Shown: positions 11,681-46,033, counted from the whole stretch's first letter. The stretch: DNA of 63,739 nt, filler included, from Platydemus manokwari (GCA_037951405.1; 5 parts of 5 records of this genome joined end to end with filler, not necessarily neighbours in it), one strand, 5' to 3'. Notes: generated by a model from the sequence alone, not told the origin. A program made the numbers and translations.

Positions 11681-11780
11681 NNNNNNNNNNNNNNNNNNNN
11701 NNNNNNNNNNNNNNNNNNNNNNNNTTAATTAATTAANNNNNNNNNNNNNNNNNNNNNNNNNNNNNNNNNNNNNNNNNNNN
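11681..11780. other. Artificial contig spacer (44 N + TTAATTAATTAA + 44 N)
   Basis: Identical 100-nt spacer occurs four times; the 12-mer puts stop codons in all six frames. Confidence 0.98.
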
Positions 11781-11921
11781 ATGTTTTTGGTGATGTTTTT
11801 TTAGATGATGCTTTTATGGCAAAATTTTTGGGTGTTTCAAATTCTAAATGAGAAGCTAGCCCTCACTCATGTGTAAACGATTACCCTTCTTCTTAGTCGT
11901 TCCCAAAATCCAGTCATAGCT

Positions 11922-14333
11922 ATGCAATTACAACGCACGATGCATCATTACGAGACTCGCTTCGCAGGCCGGAAAGTGCCGTTCTCTGCACAAATGTTGC
12001 CCTACACAACATCCCGAAAAAATAGTTCTCTCAGGGGCAAAAATACGACCTTACCAAGCAAAGTGCCTGCAAGTAAGAGAACTACACCCTATCACTCACA
12101 AGATTCTAATGCTCAAAAGACAGGAGACTTGTTAACAGCTGCCAGTAACCTCGTCAAAGAATGTGTCTCACCTTCCGAAGCAACGTCAGTAAAGACCATG
12201 CAACCAATATCGCCGGATGAGGGAAAACATATCTGCCAAACCTCCAGCAATCATTTGAAGGTTCGAAGCAGTAAAGTCTCAGCCGCAGCTCCACAACAGC
12301 CTGCTGCGCCTCATCTGAACAAGCAAAACAGTGCGCAAGCTCCCCAGCTCTGCGTCAACAACAACGCTCCGAACTGTCCGCCAGCGACGGGGACACAAAC
12401 ACCATCCTCATCAGTGGTACAAGACAGAATAGTTGTTATTAATAAGGACATTTCAAGCGTGGTAGACTCTCCTCATTCTCCAGATTATATGTTCGATAAC
12501 ATTCGCGCACAAACCGATACTGGCAGTAAATTACCCCAGGACGTAAGCTGCGAGAACAAAATAAAATTTCCAGTACAGAGCAATAGAAAAAACACTGTTT
12601 CTTCTTTTAATGGTTACTTGCACCCGCTTCAAATAACAAGCTCTCAAAAAATTCATGAAATTATTCACAATTTGTCTCTAACAGCAGCGTTTTTCAATAA
12701 ATCCCTAAGACAACGTGAGCCTCCTAGCCCGTCGTCGATTTTCTCTACAGTATCAAACATTCAGAACCTAACCGAGCAACTTTTTGCTTTAAATTCACAT
12801 ATAAGTTCTCAAGACCTTGCACCTGTGGTACCTGCTAGTATCTCTTGTGAAGTCGACTCCAATTGTCGAGAACCTTACGATACTTTGCTGCTAGGTGACA
12901 ATATCCTAAGCACGATCAGAAGAAAGGACATCGATCGCTCGTGCTGGATCAAAACAGTTCCATCTGGGCGCTTCGATGACCTTCTCCATACTATAAACTG
13001 CATGCCTAGATTTAAAAATTATATACTAAGTTTTGATGGTCTCTGCCACTCGCCCTCAGACCTTTCTCGAATCAAACAACAAATTGTAAGGAAGTACGCA
13101 CTTTCTCGTATTTATATTGCCAATGCTTGCAGTGCGAAAGAATTCAACAAAGCGATGAATTTTTGCAAAAACCTGGGTTTAAACTTGATTCAATTTCAAA
13201 CTTACCCAGATAATGAAAATGGTGACGCACTCAATAACTTTCAATGGCCTCGGACCCAGGAAGAAAACTTTTGTTTTCTTGGACAACTTGCAATGAAATC
13301 AACATTGCGAATCACCGTGCCATACTGTCCTCGTTTCAACAAATGTCAAGCAATAAATGGAATTGTAGATCATTCCAATGAATCGAAAACTTCACGGAAT
13401 GAGACAAACAGTCTCACTTTAAACTTTGAAAAAGAATATAAGCCTATGCACATCACTGCACATGGTACACCAAATCCTTCAAAATTGATTGCGTCATCAA
13501 GCAGAGCTCTGAGTAACTCACTCACCCACAGCATGAGGAACGTGAATAAGCCTGAGCCTTTCCCTGACTCGATCTCAGACAAATATAATGTCAGTACGAA
13601 AAATAAATTTGGGTTACTTGCAACAGACGCAAATAGTGATTGCGACATGCCCTCCTTTTCAACCAATTCTCAACTTTCCAGTGAGTACGCAGGAACCGAG
13701 GAAAGTCAAGCGAATAACGATATTCAAAACTATTCCAAAGAAAATCAAATTATTCGAAAAAAATCTGATGCCTCTGCCAGGCCTCCATCGAACGACCAAA
13801 CCGATACTGCTACCGCAAAATCAACAGTGAATCAAATTTGCACACGCGTTGCAGACACACTGGACGACCTGAAACGATCGCTCAAAATGGAGCCTGCTTA
13901 CACTTTAGGTGACGGACACTGTCTCCTCCACGCCGTAACGGCGCAGCTGGCTTCACAACAAATATGGAAATGGAATTATACATCTCTGAAAAAAGCCATC
14001 AAAACTGAGAGCTCCAGAAACAGAGATCAGTATGCAAAATTCGTTGACAAGAACAGTGGCAGTTTCGAACAACTCATCGATAAATACATCGATAGAAAAG
14101 TCTTCGATCACGCAGTTGGAGACCTCATACCCCAAATACTTTCTAATGTGACGAGAACACCAATTCACGTATTTGATGAAAGAGACAATGGGATTTGGAA
14201 GACGATAATCTCCCCTATATCAAATGCTCTGATAAACTGTCCTCCGGTAAGCATACACCGGAAACAGGACCACTATAGCGCCCTCTTGAAAATGCGTGAT
14301 GAAAATCGTGCTGCTCCCGCCCCCATTTTGTGA
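11922..14333 (+). CDS. LINE ORF1 protein: low-complexity N-terminus, degenerate SGNH-esterase-like domain, C-terminal OTU cysteine protease domain
   Basis: 803 aa from the first in-frame ATG. TLLLGDNILS...WIKTVPSGRFDDL (GDS-type block, Ser replaced by Asn); VSTKNKFGLL (T.NRF..L-type ORF1 motif); TLGDGHCLLHAV (D664, C667)...VGDLIPQILSN...PIHVF...VSIHRKQDHYSAL (H784), the OTU Cys and His boxes. Confidence 0.88.
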   Translation: MQLQRTMHHYETRFAGRKVPFSAQMLPYTTSRKNSSLRGKNTTLPSKVPASKRTTPYHSQDSNAQKTGDLLTAASNLVKECVSPSEATSVKTMQPISPDEGKHICQTSSNHLKVRSSKVSAAAPQQPAAPHLNKQNSAQAPQLCVNNNAPNCPPATGTQTPSSSVVQDRIVVINKDISSVVDSPHSPDYMFDNIRAQTDTGSKLPQDVSCENKIKFPVQSNRKNTVSSFNGYLHPLQITSSQKIHEIIHNLSLTAAFFNKSLRQREPPSPSSIFSTVSNIQNLTEQLFALNSHISSQDLAPVVPASISCEVDSNCREPYDTLLLGDNILSTIRRKDIDRSCWIKTVPSGRFDDLLHTINCMPRFKNYILSFDGLCHSPSDLSRIKQQIVRKYALSRIYIANACSAKEFNKAMNFCKNLGLNLIQFQTYPDNENGDALNNFQWPRTQEENFCFLGQLAMKSTLRITVPYCPRFNKCQAINGIVDHSNESKTSRNETNSLTLNFEKEYKPMHITAHGTPNPSKLIASSSRALSNSLTHSMRNVNKPEPFPDSISDKYNVSTKNKFGLLATDANSDCDMPSFSTNSQLSSEYAGTEESQANNDIQNYSKENQIIRKKSDASARPPSNDQTDTATAKSTVNQICTRVADTLDDLKRSLKMEPAYTLGDGHCLLHAVTAQLASQQIWKWNYTSLKKAIKTESSRNRDQYAKFVDKNSGSFEQLIDKYIDRKVFDHAVGDLIPQILSNVTRTPIHVFDERDNGIWKTIISPISNALINCPPVSIHRKQDHYSALLKMRDENRAAPAPIL

Positions 14334-17297
14334 CTAAATAACAGTGATCAAATTGAATTTGAAGCTGAAATCACAAACAATGAACGCGGCAATAAAGACC
14401 TAGAGACGAATACTAAATGCCCTGCTAGACCTAAAAAATGCAATAACTCCACTAAAGATCTGCCTATTGAGATAAATAATATCAAAATATTGCACATAAA
14501 TGCTCGCAGTCTCAATGGTAAAATGGATGACGTACGAGTAATGTTGATCACTAACGATATCGATATTCTATGCGTATCTGAAACATGGTTCGATTCACGA
14601 GTCGAAAGCTCATATCTCAGCATTACCGGGTACACATTGTACCGTTATGACGGAGTCAAGAGTAAGAGAGGTAGCGGTTCATGCATTTTCATCAAAGATG
14701 TCTACTCTACATCCTTATTTCCGATAAAAGAAAAATGCGAAGACATAGAAATGGTTTGGCTCAATGTTCAAGTAAACAAACACAAGTCTTTCATTATCGG
14801 CAGTCTTTACAGACATCCGTCAGCATCTCTACGTCCAACATTAAATTTCATTGAAAATACGCTTAAATTAATCTCTGCAGCCAAAAAGTCTTTCTATGTT
14901 TTCGGAGATTTTAACGTAGATCTGACAAATAAAAACAATCAGCTAAGCAAGATGCTGCACAGACTTAATCTTTCTCAAATGGTCCAAGAACCAACGCGAA
15001 TTACCAACACTTCCAAAACTCTTCTTGACCTAGCAATTACAAACAATCCCCAAGCAGTACTCAGCACAGAGATCTTACCGTCCTTTTCTGATCACCATTC
15101 GGTAGAATGCCAAATCAATATCGCAAAAGAGAAACAGAAATCTAGTTACATTACATATCGCATGAAAAACCACTACTCCCCTGAAATATTTCAAGAAAAG
15201 CTATTAGACAGATGGAGTGAATTTCAAGGCATGGAAAACACCGATGATGTCAATCTACAAGTTTCGCTTTTCAACGAAAATTTCGTATCAGCTCTTAACG
15301 AATGCGCACCTTTCACTACGAAGAAAGTTAAGCCAAGAATTTCTAAATGGATAACAGATGAGATAAAACAGTTGAGCAGAGCTAAAAGAAATTTGCAACG
15401 TGAGTACAAACTGAATAAATCAGACAGTACGCGTCGAAAATTATATAAAGATCATGAGAAGATCCTACGAAGAAAAGTTAAGGAAGCAAAACGGGACTAC
15501 TTCCACAAAGAACTCTCGGCGGCAAAACAAAACCCAAAAAGAACTTGGGAAATCATTAGAGAAGTTGCTCAGTATAAAAATTCAGACAGCAAAAGCACTT
15601 TTGACAACCCCTCAAAAATGGCGAATGACTTTAACACTTTCTTCTCAAAAGTTGGCGAAGATGTTTTCAATGAAGTATCCAGGACAGTTTCAGACACATC
15701 TACAGGGGCAAATCTGAGCGATGTTTCATCCCCAAATAGTATAAACAAATGGAGACCAAAGCCGGTTAGCGTCATAGAGATACGAAAAATCTTATTCTCA
15801 CTGAAGAATACTAAAGCGACTGGACATGATGGCATAAGTCTCCAACATATAAAAGACAGCTTCCCTGTCACAGCACCCCTCATTCGCTTGATAATAAATA
15901 CATCTATAGCCACAAACAAGTTTCCCGATCAATGGAAACTATCCATTATTAAGCCATTACATAAATCTGGTGATATCGACATAGCGTCAAACTACAGACC
16001 AATCAGTCTCCTGCCTGTTATGTCCAAAATATTAGAAAAAGTAATAACAAAACAGCTCTCGTTTTACATAGACGAGTCACATCTACTGCATCGCAATCAA
16101 TATGCTTACAGAAGGAATACCAGTACTCAGGACGCCCTGTTAAACATAACAGAAAAAATTTACAATGATATTGACCAAAAAAAATTAACTCTCTTACTAT
16201 TGCTTGATCTCTCCAAAGCTTTCGACAGTGTTGAGCATAAGAAACTTCTACAAAAAATTTCAAACCTCAGAATAGACACTCAGTGGTTTGAAAGCTACCT
16301 ACTAAACCGCTCTCATGCAGTGTGCTTGAATAACAAAATGTCATCATTCATAAAAAATAATTTTGGCGTTCCTCAAGGTTCAATCATCGGCCCGCTCCTA
16401 TTTTCAATTTTCATCAATGATTTCCCCACCATGCCGGCAAACACAAAAATCTCTATGTATGCTGATGACGTACAAATTGCCATGACAAGCTCAACAGCGG
16501 ATTTAAAAGAAACACAAGCCAACGCTGAAAACCTTCTGAGAAATCTGAAATTGTGGTATGACCATAATGGCCTCAAACTTAACGCAAGTAAAACGCAATG
16601 CATTATTTTTGGATCACAGAATGCGACTGAAAATTTACCACCATTCAAGCTAACATTTGGAGACGATACAATTGAACCAGTAGATAAGGTAAAAAATCTG
16701 GGTGTTTGGTTTGACAAAAATATGACTTTCAATTCACACGTCGAAACAATGTGCAACAAAATTAACGGAACCTTAATGTTCTTTCATCGCATTAAGAACA
16801 CACTTGACGAAAAATCTAGATTATTAGTGATTCAGTCTTTAGTTTTATCGCGTCTGGACTACTGCAGTCTTGTGTGGGGAGATTTACCTCAATGTCGTCA
16901 GGAAGAGTTGCAAAAATGTATAAACTTCGCCGCCAAAGTGGTATGCAAAGGAAATTTCAATAAATACGATCATGTCACCCCTCTTTTAAGAAAACTCGAC
17001 TGGATCCCAATACCGAACAGATTCATGATCCAAAAAGCTCGACGAGTATTCTCCTCTCTGTACCTCCCCCAAAGTAATGCAGAGGTGGTAAAATTTTTTC
17101 CATCTAATATCCCAAACAAAAAACCAAATCGGAGGAATGATGTTTTAGTCAGTTACCGTTCATCTAACGTGGGACAAAAAGCTCTCTCAGTTTCTGGAGC
17201 TTTTTTGTGGAACAAGCTTCCTCAGTATATCAAAAACTCTAAAACTGTAAAAGAATTTAGAGTAAATGTGTCACGTCATTTTGCATCTCTGTCATAG
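14334..17297 (+). CDS. LINE ORF2: AP-endonuclease plus reverse transcriptase (open directly from the ORF1 stop; no upstream AUG)
   Basis: APE motifs ILHINARSL, ILCVSETW, YRHP, GDFN, PTR, LDL, SDHH. RT motifs YRPISLL, DLSKAFD, GVPQGS, YADD, KNLGV. C-terminal DHVTPLLRKLDW and LWNKLP are typical of CR1/L2-group elements. The frame is open for 52 codons upstream of the track's TTG start at 14490. Confidence 0.95.
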   Translation, partial: LNNSDQIEFEAEITNNERGNKDLETNTKCPARPKKCNNSTKDLPIEINNIKILHINARSLNGKMDDVRVMLITNDIDILCVSETWFDSRVESSYLSITGYTLYRYDGVKSKRGSGSCIFIKDVYSTSLFPIKEKCEDIEMVWLNVQVNKHKSFIIGSLYRHPSASLRPTLNFIENTLKLISAAKKSFYVFGDFNVDLTNKNNQLSKMLHRLNLSQMVQEPTRITNTSKTLLDLAITNNPQAVLSTEILPSFSDHHSVECQINIAKEKQKSSYITYRMKNHYSPEIFQEKLLDRWSEFQGMENTDDVNLQVSLFNENFVSALNECAPFTTKKVKPRISKWITDEIKQLSRAKRNLQREYKLNKSDSTRRKLYKDHEKILRRKVKEAKRDYFHKELSAAKQNPKRTWEIIREVAQYKNSDSKSTFDNPSKMANDFNTFFSKVGEDVFNEVSRTVSDTSTGANLSDVSSPNSINKWRPKPVSVIEIRKILFSLKNTKATGHDGISLQHIKDSFPVTAPLIRLIINTSIATNKFPDQWKLSIIKPLHKSGDIDIASNYRPISLLPVMSKILEKVITKQLSFYIDESHLLHRNQYAYRRNTSTQDALLNITEKIYNDIDQKKLTLLLLLDLSKAFDSVEHKKLLQKISNLRIDTQWFESYLLNRSHAVCLNNKMSSFIKNNFGVPQGSIIGPLLFSIFINDFPTMPANTKISMYADDVQIAMTSSTADLKETQANAENLLRNLKLWYDHNGLKLNASKTQCIIFGSQNATENLPPFKLTFGDDTIEPVDKVKNLGVWFDKNMTFNSHVETMCNKINGTLMFFHRIKNTLDEKSRLLVIQSLVLSRLDYCSLVWGDLPQCRQEELQKCINFAAKVVCKGNFNKYDHVTPLLRKLDWIPIPNRFMIQKARRVFSSLYLPQSNAEVVKFFPSNIPNKKPNRRNDVLVSYRSSNVGQKALSVSGAFLWNKLPQYIKNSKTVKEFRVNVSRHFASLS

Positions 17298-17844
17298 GGC
17301 CTGCAGCATTTCGGTGTGAATTTCCCATCTACCAGAAATTTTAACTTTCCTGAAATTTCTATTAGAAAATTAGAAACTATTTCATTTTACGTTTGCTAAG
17401 CCATTCGTATATTCATCTTACTTATTTCTGTCGACAATAATGAGCACCACAGCCGTCAGTTCAATGCAGCAGAACGAACGTTCTTTCCATAATTAGGAGT
17501 ATTTCCTCATCTTTATTTTTAATATTTAACGTCCGTATGACAAATATACCATGAAACACATTTTGTGTGTACACCAATATACAGGTTTATAGATGTGAGG
17601 GTTGTGCAAAGTTTTTAATGAATTAAATTTTGGCTAACGTTGTCTCGCTATTTCAAAATCATTCTCGAAGATGTTTTCAATCGATTTTCGGCTGAGCTGG
17701 GGGGAGGGAGTAATTTAAGCATTTCATTTAGTCTTTTTATATTTTTCCGTGCGTTCAGCGCACACTAGCACTGAACTTTCAAACCGAAAAATCTCTAACT
17801 TTCCGTAATTAAAATTATCACTTTGGACCATTGTTTAATCTACC

Positions 17845-19015
17845 TATTTGTGCCAGATTTTGTAAATATTCGCCACTCAGATGTGATATCCGGCCACAAT
17901 GTTACTCCATTTTATCCCATGTACACATGTCCGTATAATGCTGAGGAGTTGTGTTGTTTCTTGACTGTAACCTGAGTTTTCTTAAAAATTTCTATGAAGA
18001 AATTAAAAACCAGTTCATTTTTACGTTTTTCGAAGTCTTCTTTTCCTTTTAGTTATTTTTTTCCGAATAATTTCTTAGGATTACAGTGAGCTCAACTGTC
18101 ATTTTCGGTGTAGTAGATGGTAGGTTGTTTTTATCTTTTTATTTTATATATGTATTTTTTTTTTTTTTTTTCATTAAATTTCATTTTCAATAAGTATATA
18201 TATTAATATGTGTGTGTACGTGTGTAGGTATATATATATCTACATAAATAGATATACATGTTTCTATTTCATTTCTTTACGCAAAAACCATCCGGTTAAT
18301 AAATTTTATTGCACTAGCGAAATGATTCAAAAATAGATCTATCACTTCCCCAGAGGGCGTTTCTGTGAATCGGATTAATGACAAATACAATTAATGAAGT
18401 AAAGCGCAATTTGAGCATATGAATCGTGGTAAAATTATCTTTCTGTCCGTATGTTGTACAAGCTATGAATTTTGATGTTGAGTATATGTTTGTTTACGCA
18501 TTTCTGCCAAAATTTTGTAGATATTTGTCAATCATGAGTGGTAACCGGCTTACACTGTATCTCCATTTTATCCCATGTACCCATGTCCGCATGATGTTGC
18601 AGAGAATATCGAGAAGATATGAAATATGTTTTTTTGTTGTTGTTGTTCCTCGGCGGTAACTTGAGTTTTCTTAAAATTTCTTTTAGGAAATTAAAAAACC
18701 ATTCCATTTATACGTTTTTCGAAGTCCTTTTTCTATTCCTTATCTTTCATCTGGTTATTTCTTCCGATACATCAGAACTTTGGCTGTCATTTTAAATATA
18801 GAAAGAGCAAGATTATTTTTCATGTTTATTAGCATTTTTCTTATATTCATTTTCAATACGTATATATATGAATATGTGTGTTGGTGTGTGCATGAGTGTG
18901 TGTGTGCGCACGCAAACATAAATGTCTATGTATCAGTGTACACATGCACACGTTCGCACATATATATGCGCACATGTACATATATATGTTTCTATTTCTA
19001 CTTTTTGCGTAAAAG
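17845..19015. repeat. Diverged direct repeat pair (about 17845-18290 and 18500-19015)
   Basis: Shared blocks in the same order: CTCCATTTTATCCCATGTAC.CATGTCCG, TGAGTTTTCTTAAAA, TACGTTTTTCGAAGTC, TTCATTTTCAATA, TGTTTCTATTTC. A partial third start is seen near 19120-19150. Confidence 0.8.
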
Positions 19016-20668: not shown

Positions 20669-20768
20669 NNNNNNNNNNNNNNNNNNNNNNNNNNNNNNNN
20701 NNNNNNNNNNNNTTAATTAATTAANNNNNNNNNNNNNNNNNNNNNNNNNNNNNNNNNNNNNNNNNNNN
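20669..20768. other. Artificial contig spacer
   Basis: 44 N + TTAATTAATTAA + 44 N. Confidence 0.98.
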
Positions 20769-31687: not shown

Positions 31688-31787
31688 NNNNNNNNNNNNN
31701 NNNNNNNNNNNNNNNNNNNNNNNNNNNNNNNTTAATTAATTAANNNNNNNNNNNNNNNNNNNNNNNNNNNNNNNNNNNNNNNNNNNN
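31688..31787. other. Artificial contig spacer
   Basis: 44 N + TTAATTAATTAA + 44 N. Confidence 0.98.
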
Positions 31788-32391
31788 GAATGTCTTATTG
31801 AGCTGCCAAAAACTAAAAAAGCTTGCAGGGGCTTTCCAGCCAAGTACCCGGACTTGGAAAAAGAAAACTTAGGGGAGAGTTATACTTGGGTGATTACGGT
31901 AGTAACATTAAATAATTAATTAAATATTAATTAAAGAATAAAAATATTGATTAAATAATAATACATTTAATAATAATAAATAATGAAGTATTAATAAAAA
32001 TAATTAAAAAAAATCAATATATAAATAAAAATTAATTAACTGATTATTATAATTTAATTATGATAATAATAATTTCTTAAATAATAATATTGATGATAAA
32101 AGTGATAAATATGAATGTGAGACTCGCTGTAATGAAATCAAATGTATAATAATAGCAGATTTATAAATTCAAGCGATAATGATAATACATGGGGATGGGC
32201 GAATTATTATGCAAAGGTTTCGAGGTCATTTTTACTTACTGATGAGTAGACAGGGCTACGAAACTAGTTTATTGGTGTTGTACCTGTTGGAATCAATCAG
32301 CGAAACCCTCACAATCTTTAGAATTTTAATAATTATAATAAAAATTAATAATTTAATTAATTAATTACTGAAATTAATGAATAAATATTAC

Positions 32392-33074
32392 GCTATCGAT
32401 TATATCGTAAACACCAGCCAAATATAACAGCGATTGATCAGCTAAAAAAATCAATATGTAAACACTATTAAAATAAAAAACAAACATTCTAACATAAATT
32501 TCTAATAAAATATGGTTGTTTTTCATTGTTCGATTGCCATTCATAAAATCTATGACAGAAAATACGTAAAGAAATACCAAATAACTTATTTCCAATGTTA
32601 ACCCTTCAATGATTACAACGCATCTATATCCTTTATTTAACGAATTTTTATAAGTTGATTTTTCGAATATTGTTTCAATTTTTGCATTATGCGTTTTTAA
32701 TTTAAAATCATTAATGGATGATTTAAACCACGATGGAATTAATCCCCATCTCATTGGTTGGATGATTCTATTATCGACAAACTCTTGATTTCTGTCATTC
32801 GGGTTTTCACAGTATAAAATAGGCCTTGTTAATAGTTTTAAATAAAATCTCTAATGACAGAAACCTACGTCATTTGATTTGGAGTGATGTTGAATGATTG
32901 TACACAATTTTGATTATTTGCAGAATTCTTAAATTTGGGATGACATTTAGAACCCACTTTATTAATGTATTGACATTTTTGTTGAATAACATCGGGCTTT
33001 AAGTTACTGTATAAAATCTTAAACCAAATGAATATATTGAAAAATATGTCTAACCAAACGATTCTTCCACACAT
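32392..33074 (-). CDS. HMCES: HMCES / SRAP-domain abasic-site processing protein, exons 1-5 (3' part not found)
   Basis: Exons 33074-33055, 33006-32869, 32824-32603, 32549-32494, 32441-32392 with GT-AG introns of 48, 44, 53 and 52 nt. Spliced product: MCGRIVCNL...SFNITPNQMTPIL...PMRWGLIPSWF...THNAKIETIFEKSTYK...RCVVIIEGFYEW...KQPYFI...LYLAGVYD, the SRAP motifs. Confidence 0.93.
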
Positions 33075-42279: not shown

Positions 42280-42379
42280 NNNNNNNNNNNNNNNNNNNNN
42301 NNNNNNNNNNNNNNNNNNNNNNNTTAATTAATTAANNNNNNNNNNNNNNNNNNNNNNNNNNNNNNNNNNNNNNNNNNNN
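42280..42379. other. Artificial contig spacer
   Basis: 44 N + TTAATTAATTAA + 44 N. Confidence 0.98.
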
Positions 42380-45300: not shown

Positions 45301-45538
45301 TTTCTTCGTTTCATAAAAATCGGCAATTAATGCGACATTGAATGTGATTTATGTATGTCATTACGTTCGAATTTTCATTAATTGATTTGAATTATGAAGA
45401 CGGCAATAATTTGAATGGTGTATAACCATTTGTTTTACTTAATGATTAGTTTTATTTACAAACAAACAAAAATATTATCGATTATAATTAATAAATATAA
45501 TTGTTGAGTTTGTAAATAAATTGCTATTTGATTTACAG

Positions 45539-46033
45539 ATTGCCAGTGGAATGGCTTATTTAGAAAAGATGCATTACATTCATCGAGATTTGGCAGCCAG
45601 AAATATATTAGTAGGCGATAACAATATGTGCAAAATCGCAGATTTTGGTCTAGCTAGAATGATGCAAGATAATAATGAAACTTATGAAGCCAAGCAAGGT
45701 GCCAAATTCCCTATCAAATGGACTGCACCGGAAGCAGCTATGATTGGTCATTTTACGATAAAATCAGATGTCTGGTCATTTGGGATAGTGTTGTATGAAA
45801 TAATCACATACGGCGGTGTGCCGTATCCAACAATGAATAACACCGAAACTCTTCGTCAGGTGGATGCTGGTTATAGGATGTCATGCCCCAGGAAATGTCC
45901 TTTGACAATCTACACTATTATGCTACAAGCTTGGGATCCCAAGCCTGATAATAGGCCTACTTTTGAATATCTATGTGAATTTTTTGAAGATTTCTTTGTC
46001 AGAACCGAAACAAACTATAAGAAAACCGACTGA
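45539..46033 (+). CDS. FRK: Src42A/FRK-like non-receptor tyrosine kinase, last coding exon
   Basis: Acceptor TTTACAG| at 45538, then [77 protein letters not shown] (rather than HRDLRAAN) plus a C-terminal regulatory Tyr fits the Src42A/FRK group; exact orthology is uncertain. Confidence 0.85.

Follow-up and report, generated by a model that had tools for sequence, protein, structure and literature searches.

The window examined here is a stretch of 63,739 nucleotides from Platydemus manokwari (GCA_037951405.1), and it contains an intact long interspersed nuclear element (LINE) spanning approximately 11.9 to 17.3 kb. The two open reading frames (ORFs) of this element are separated by an in-frame TGA that is followed directly by CTA. 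Based on the sequence, it seems likely, with a probability of about 0.6, that low-level programmed readthrough of this UGA-CUA yields a fusion of about 1790 amino acids, in which ORF1 and the OTU domain at its end are continued into the endonuclease (EN) and reverse transcriptase (RT) of ORF2. This reading is favored because there is a single TGA-CTA, no ATG precedes EN motif I, the position of the stop is conserved, and the control LINEs that lack an AUG carry recoding sites.

Translation of the plus strand from the ATG at 11922 to position 17297 encounters exactly two stops: codon 804 is the TGA at 14331-14333, and ORF2 ends with a TAG at 17295-17297. ORF1, which ends at the TGA (11922-14333, 803 amino acids), and ORF2 share one frame of 1791 codons, and the TGA is its sole break. 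The CTA occupies 14334-14336, giving the context UGA-CUA-A. An open linker of 51 codons without an ATG (14334-14486) leads into EN motif I (ILHINARSL), which starts at codon 52 after the stop, at 14487, and the earliest in-frame ATG, at 14523, is already past this motif. The translation bears out a first-pass annotation of the window, which had claimed a common frame with one TGA followed by CTA, an open run into the endonuclease motif, and a first in-frame ATG downstream of it. The 1791-residue polyprotein that it proposed stands as a 1791-codon frame broken once, but the fusion would measure 1785 amino acids if ORF1 starts at the ATG at 11940. At the same composition, open runs of 52 codons arise by chance with a frequency of 1.65% when mononucleotides are shuffled and of 0.55% under a Markov simulation, taking this single junction alone. 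The codon CTA makes up 23 of the 1791 codons (1.3%) of the element, and out-of-frame ATGs near the stop close within 13 codons. Decay of a CpG was rejected as the origin of the TGA, since the element is without CpG depletion (observed/expected ratio 0.92). The window itself consists of joined contigs, with four artificial joins (44 N, TTAATTAATTAA, 44 N) at 11681-11780, 20669-20768, 31688-31787, and 42280-42379. Neighbors across these joins need not adjoin in the genome, and 141 bp separate the first of them from the start of ORF1. No second copy of the element was found in the window.

The end of ORF1 is predicted to form an OTU cysteine protease or deubiquitinase with intact catalytic residues, a domain that was absent from the first-pass annotation. 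The domain lies at 13854-14300 on the plus strand and matches Pfam PF02338 above the cut-off (E=2.9e-6). The predicted catalytic residues are Asp664, Cys667 (13920-13922, in a D-x-x-C arrangement), and His784 (14271-14273), and the candidate readthrough site (14331-14336) begins 20 residues past this histidine. Among proteins of solved structure the best sequence match is VCPIP1 (E=1.6e-4). Additionally, the AlphaFold model of the domain has a predicted local distance difference test (pLDDT) score of 68, and its top Foldseek matches are all OTU proteins, including DUBA (3tmp). The domain would most likely work as a deubiquitinase. Because no GG or LRGG-type site is present anywhere in the 1791 amino acids, there is no obvious place for self-cleavage and a deubiquitinase role is likelier than processing. 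Avoidance of GG as a means for the polyprotein to evade its own OTU was considered and rejected, as 1.3 GG are expected and their absence is not significant (P(0)=0.28). A search of the element for the NPG motif of 2A-like peptides was also negative.

The position of the stop is conserved in relatives and not private to the window copy. An HMMER search with ORF1 against 1.84 billion representatives returned 216 matches, of which the best 150 were listed. The tail from the OTU histidine to the stop is 20 amino acids long in the window element and in eight of the nine close-group ORF1 proteins that contain the histidine (P0136, P0138, P0139, P0141, P0143, P0144, P0145, and P0286); in the ninth, P0140, it is 13. 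These proteins represent three further lineages (P0136, P0138, and a type found in the amphipod Trinorchestia) that are 43-53% identical to the window element in the OTU region, and only 0-3 of the last 15 ORF1 residues are common to the window and these lineages. In four top matches the histidine region is missing because the models are truncated, frameshifted, or spliced; P0142 is either one of these or a fragment of the N-terminus.

Sequences of four runs from four studies (X1, X2, X6, and X7) were aligned to 13750-14950. A search for runs that contain the element listed no RNA run, a result that carries no weight as to its expression. A contig of X1, which is perhaps the same sample as the source of the window, spans 14170-14796 with two differences, at 14311 and 14568; because both lie elsewhere, it keeps TGA-CTA. 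In X2, at a depth of about 1e5, majority changes occur at 14311 and 14319, and none falls at 14331-14336 among the 40 differences listed. A contig of X6 crosses the junction with 0 gaps. The linker is open in diverged copies as well. Specifically, it is 6 nt longer and in frame in diverged X2 and X7 copies, and two of the three listed X7 pieces that span the junction have a net gain of 6 nt, the third one of 5. It is also weakly homologous to the N-terminus of protein P0289. The linker thus looks coding, which is predicted alike by readthrough and by reinitiation near the stop. The expectation that both TGA-CTA and the frame are conserved holds for the stop column, which is retained across lineages, but the hexamer is readable in near-identical copies only.

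Other LINEs were used as controls, drawn from RT-based scans that returned relatives 22-40% identical to the window element (80 of 482 loci together with 42 loci, 122 in all). The 28 loci with an EN N-terminus on the plus strand were counted and 94 were dropped; in a few rows, the start of the alignment stood in for the position of motif I. An in-frame ATG lies upstream of motif I in 26 of these 28 distant LINE loci, with the most upstream one 18-151 codons before the motif. None of the 28 has a same-frame upstream ORF of at least 100 codons, and none has TGA-CTA. The two controls without an AUG, L046 and L062, have an ORF2 that overlaps the end of ORF1 in the -1 frame. In L046 the canonical -1 frameshift site T-TTA-AAC stands directly before the ORF1 TAG (1368-1377), and in L062 the weaker slippery-type site G-GAT-TTC stands before the ORF1 TAA (1836-1848). 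All three elements without an AUG, the window element among them, therefore carry a recoding-type signal exactly at the ORF1 stop, which is not what AUG-independent reinitiation predicts. The OTU domain of this family was found in none of the RT-scan loci at E<0.01. Loci L082-L115 belong to JAAEPI01, a Cytophagales metagenome-assembled genome in GTDB that contains dozens of eukaryotic LINE fragments, so contamination with animal DNA is indicated.

If the UGA is read through, most ribosomes would terminate at it and give ORF1p, and a few percent would insert a near-cognate amino acid. Readthrough of a few percent would suit the low requirement of LINEs for ORF2p. It would set a high ratio of ORF1p to ORF2p, and the fusion would tether the RT to its own ribonucleoprotein particle. 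With no 3' structure found, the CUA context alone would have to promote the event. Among readthrough hexamers, UGACUA belongs to type II and depends on a downstream structure only conditionally, and Sindbis virus lacking its stem still shows readthrough of 2% in HEK293 cells and 10% in Vero and C6/36 cells (PMC13517186).

Several observations weigh against readthrough. No downstream stimulatory structure was identified (z=0.10 for 200 nt, z=-1.86 for the best local hairpin), and no significant RNA structure was found either upstream or downstream of the stop. Four more distant OTU-containing ORF1s end elsewhere, with tails of 11, 11, 66, and 83 amino acids. The CTA is readable in no lineage below about 90% identity. 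For the four runs, 1147 differences lie beyond the 40 listed, 9 of the 23 differences in X6 are unlocated, and the X7 table excludes only a near-fixed change at the stop hexamer. LINEs that join OTU, EN, and RT in a single ORF form a clade separate from the window element in a tree made by a quick method. Furthermore, P0289, which is 59% identical over the linker and EN, begins with a methionine that aligns to codon +1 to +4 past the stop position. This methionine is probably encoded by a real ATG, because V is the first residue in two of the five JGI proteins compared. The retrovirus-like strategy proposed in the first-pass annotation is accordingly left as the best of the explanations weighed, with the conserved stop in its favor and the missing structure and the P0289 methionine against it.

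The main alternative, possible though rather doubtful, is termination followed by reinitiation. Ribosomes would stop at the UGA and restart in frame at a nearby non-AUG codon, such as the ATT at +7, or independently of an AUG, and the product would be a free ORF2p with an N-terminal extension of about 50 amino acids; some subfamilies would have a true AUG. The linker contains near-cognate codons at +7 (ATT), +13 (ATC), +25 (ACG), and +43 (CTG), with others later. The methionine at +1 to +4 in P0289 is what such a restart would produce, and codon +4 is ATT in 94% of the X7 depth. The length of the linker also fits a normal ORF2 N-terminus, given the distance of the control AUGs from motif I. 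Against this, codon +4 is AGT in the window and in the dominant X2 copies, and in both the near-cognate codons begin no earlier than +7. Stop and start do not overlap either, since the GTG that overlaps the TGA closes after three codons. The gene call for P0048, whose ORF2 is 48% identical, starts at a methionine after motif I and so points away from reinitiation. Reinitiation also leaves both the UGA-CUA, with CTA at 1.3% of codons, and the zero frame unexplained.

Human L1 and Bombyx SART1 face the same problem of a bicistronic APE-type LINE, and their ORF2s are translated by reinitiation (PMC5972666, PMC5009743, PMC3708506); that of human L1 can also be translated independently of an AUG (PMC11485995). 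In L1 a spacer of 63 nt is followed by an ORF2 that has an AUG, and SART1 has a UAAUG overlap and a downstream structure, whereas the window element has neither such an AUG nor an overlap. Coupling of the SART1 type is not seen here, as there is no AUG at the ORF1 stop and a SART1-like downstream structure was not found. A calicivirus-type UGGGA was considered, but the nearest one lies 142 nt upstream of the stop and was judged too far.

Splicing could in principle remove the stop and join ORF1, or an upstream exon with an AUG, to ORF2, but this is very improbable. A pyrimidine-rich tract precedes the CAG at 14342-14344, and OTU is joined to RT in the Trinorchestia models P0064 and P0146. The entire endonuclease is missing from these models, which have the look of artefacts of ab initio prediction, and the candidate acceptor AG (14343-14344) is lost in 94% of the X7 depth. 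Moreover, cis-preference should leave spliced DNA copies, yet a GT-AG skip over the stop was seen in none of the 15 joints listed (contigs only, with 64 more joints besides).

A private nonsense mutation in an element with a single ORF, with CGA or TGG as conceivable source codons, was named in the first-pass annotation as a refuting condition; it is largely refuted itself, and together with a sequencing error is given very little weight. Single-ORF LINEs with OTU, EN, and RT do exist. However, the stop column is identical in three other lineages, and the TGA is kept in the X1 contig. There is also no close fused ORF1-ORF2 form among 47 matches of 985-3135 amino acids; only P0025, at 25% identity, covers both domains. 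DNA of the lineages with 43-53% identity was not recovered: a metagenome scan with the OTU alignment yielded it for 0 of 97 candidates, and viral scans for 0 of 2, 0 of 36, 0 of 108, and 0 of 6. Finally, decoding of the in-frame UGA as selenocysteine is exceedingly unlikely, as an Rfam scan of 11800-18200 returned no selenocysteine insertion sequence (SECIS) or other relevant match, only two weak miRNA matches, and the position falls in an unconserved tail, not at a catalytic site.

The layout of the remaining parts of the element fits a CR1-group APE LINE. The true start of ORF1 may be the ATG at 11940, which would give a protein of 797 amino acids. By eye, the sequence from this Met7 resembles the first residues of the Trinorchestia ORF1 models P0137 and P0140, though BLAST gave no alignment with their N-termini. 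A conserved block at residues 226-345 (12597-12956, plus strand), 52% identical to P0142 and 49% to P0137, leads into an esterase-like motif. This motif, LLLGDN at residue 322, belongs to what is probably an SGNH/GDSL esterase-like domain (12876-13211, plus strand, boundaries approximate), which is offered as a lead only. Atlas features for approximately residues 319-430 fall among GDSL lipase clusters with a score of 0.89, and ten of the ten named matches belong to one family or clan. Pfam gave no esterase match in ORF1, and Atlas with residues 225-320 gave no usable match. An ORF1 of the esterase type is characteristic of some CR1 and L2 elements. In ORF2, the APE-type endonuclease (14487-15095, plus strand; PF03372 and PF14529) has HINARSL at 14493, and the reverse transcriptase (15963-16709, plus strand; PF00078, E=1e-37) has YADD at 16458. 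At 14660-14690 the window has GSG in place of the GGG that is usual for this endonuclease motif, as do P0289 and P0048. The Pfam scan found neither RNase H nor a zinc finger in the element. No convincing 3' tandem repeat or poly(A) tail was present near 17300-17600.

The N-terminal APE endonuclease, the RT, and the lack of RNase H, together with sequence motifs, fit a CR1-group LINE on the L2/Crack/Daphne/Kiri side. The closest named relatives are gene models of Trinorchestia longiramus, with an RT identity of 73%, and the RT tree places the window element as sister to this family with support of 97; the tree was built by the quick method from unnamed proteins and Trinorchestia models, without named reference elements. 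The Trinorchestia LINE (KAF2354356.1, KAF2348417.1, and KAF2345908.1) likewise has an OTU-terminated ORF1 with the identical stop column, and is known here from protein models of apparently decayed copies alone. OTU and EN/RT are fused in one ORF in P0025 and in 18 of the best 150 of the 216 ORF1 matches, excluding the spliced model P0146. Five of these single-ORF LINEs, P0025, P0023, P0171, P0179, and P0219, form a clade with support of 99, which is apparently not covered in the ORF1 and CR1-group surveys checked. They resemble the window element in that OTU adjoins EN-RT but differ from it in RT clade, and the quick tree does not support them as its direct ancestor. Fusions of OTU, EN, and RT elsewhere would thus be an analogy and not evidence of descent.

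Elsewhere in the window, an ORF fragment at 32374-32850 on the minus strand has an SRAP/HMCES abasic-site sensor domain (PF02586, E=4e-14) and is probably a host exon. A tyrosine kinase domain fragment at 45488-46033 on the plus strand (PF07714, E=1.4e-63) is a host exon.

The known systems that resemble the proposed one come from ciliates, RNA viruses, and retroviruses. In Paramecium, UGA is the sole stop codon. For the Group 3 non-LTR elements of Paramecium tetraurelia, consensus sequences led to the proposal that the ORF1 stop is read through (Guerin et al., 2017; 12 elements in Table S3; PMC5405496). These LINEs are also of the APE-RT type, and a stop separates their in-frame ORF1 and ORF2, but they belong to a ciliate clade and have zinc fingers in ORF1 and ORF2, whereas the window element lacks a zinc finger and its nearest named relative is an amphipod. 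Read by eye, the stop contexts of three of the 12 are UGA-UUC, UGA-GUG, and UGA-GUG, not UGA-CUA, and neither an OTU nor an esterase domain is described for them (PMC5405496). The window element would therefore resemble Group 3 in mechanism without belonging to it. In the gammaretrovirus Moloney murine leukemia virus (MoMLV), an abundant structural ORF is accompanied by a rare readthrough fusion bearing RT, Gag-Pol, as is proposed for the window element. The aspartic protease of MoMLV lies downstream of the stop, whereas the candidate protease of the window element is the OTU, which lies upstream of the stop and hence would be made at ORF1 levels. The stop in MoMLV is a UAG with a pseudoknot (PMC13517186), unlike the UGA-CUA found here. 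At the type II readthrough junction between alphavirus nsP3 and nsP4, Sindbis virus has an identical UGA-CUA-A, and its polymerase is encoded beyond this leaky stop (Table 1 of PMC13517186). Sindbis is an RNA virus with a 177-nt stimulatory stem-loop, and no such structure was found in this retrotransposon. The OTU domain also has precedents in mobile elements. It occurs in Helentrons (PMC4067079), and in a LINE of Symbiodinium necroappetens the ORF2p has an OTU immediately N-terminal to EN-RT, as in the fusion proposed here. In that LINE the OTU is in the ORF2 frame and a 2A-like peptide is present (PMC13405545), whereas in the window element the stop parts OTU from EN and there is no NPG.

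A term search of the text available from two ORF1 and CR1-group surveys (PMC4120745, PMC13343379) found no mention of OTU or readthrough. Neither a description of this LINE family nor a report of an animal LINE with UGA-CUA readthrough turned up in the literature searched; the search covered papers outside Repbase, Dfam, and bioRxiv supplements, where a listing is possible. What is new is that an animal LINE combines an ORF1 ending in an OTU with a candidate leaky stop of the alphavirus type, while readthrough at a LINE ORF1 stop itself has already been proposed in Paramecium.

How ORF2p is produced from bicistronic LINE RNAs is a long-standing question that has been partly settled for L1 and SART1. 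The window element offers a metazoan LINE with one conserved in-frame stop, a UGA-CUA context, and no AUG, for which readthrough and reinitiation predict opposite outcomes in point mutants. The OTU that terminates ORF1 is a candidate counter-defense enzyme. It is a speculative and improbable extension of these observations that a widespread crustacean-associated LINE clade makes a UGA-CUA readthrough polyprotein whose own OTU either processes it or protects it against host control based on ubiquitin, in a Gag-Pro-Pol-like program convergent with those of retroviruses and alphaviruses. If the readthrough itself is true, a LINE RT could work while still fused to ORF1, or after being cut from such a fusion, and retrotransposition would depend on the fidelity of termination in the host. 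Overall, recoding in LINEs, whether by readthrough, -1 frameshifting, or 2A peptides, would then be far commoner than the textbook model based on L1.

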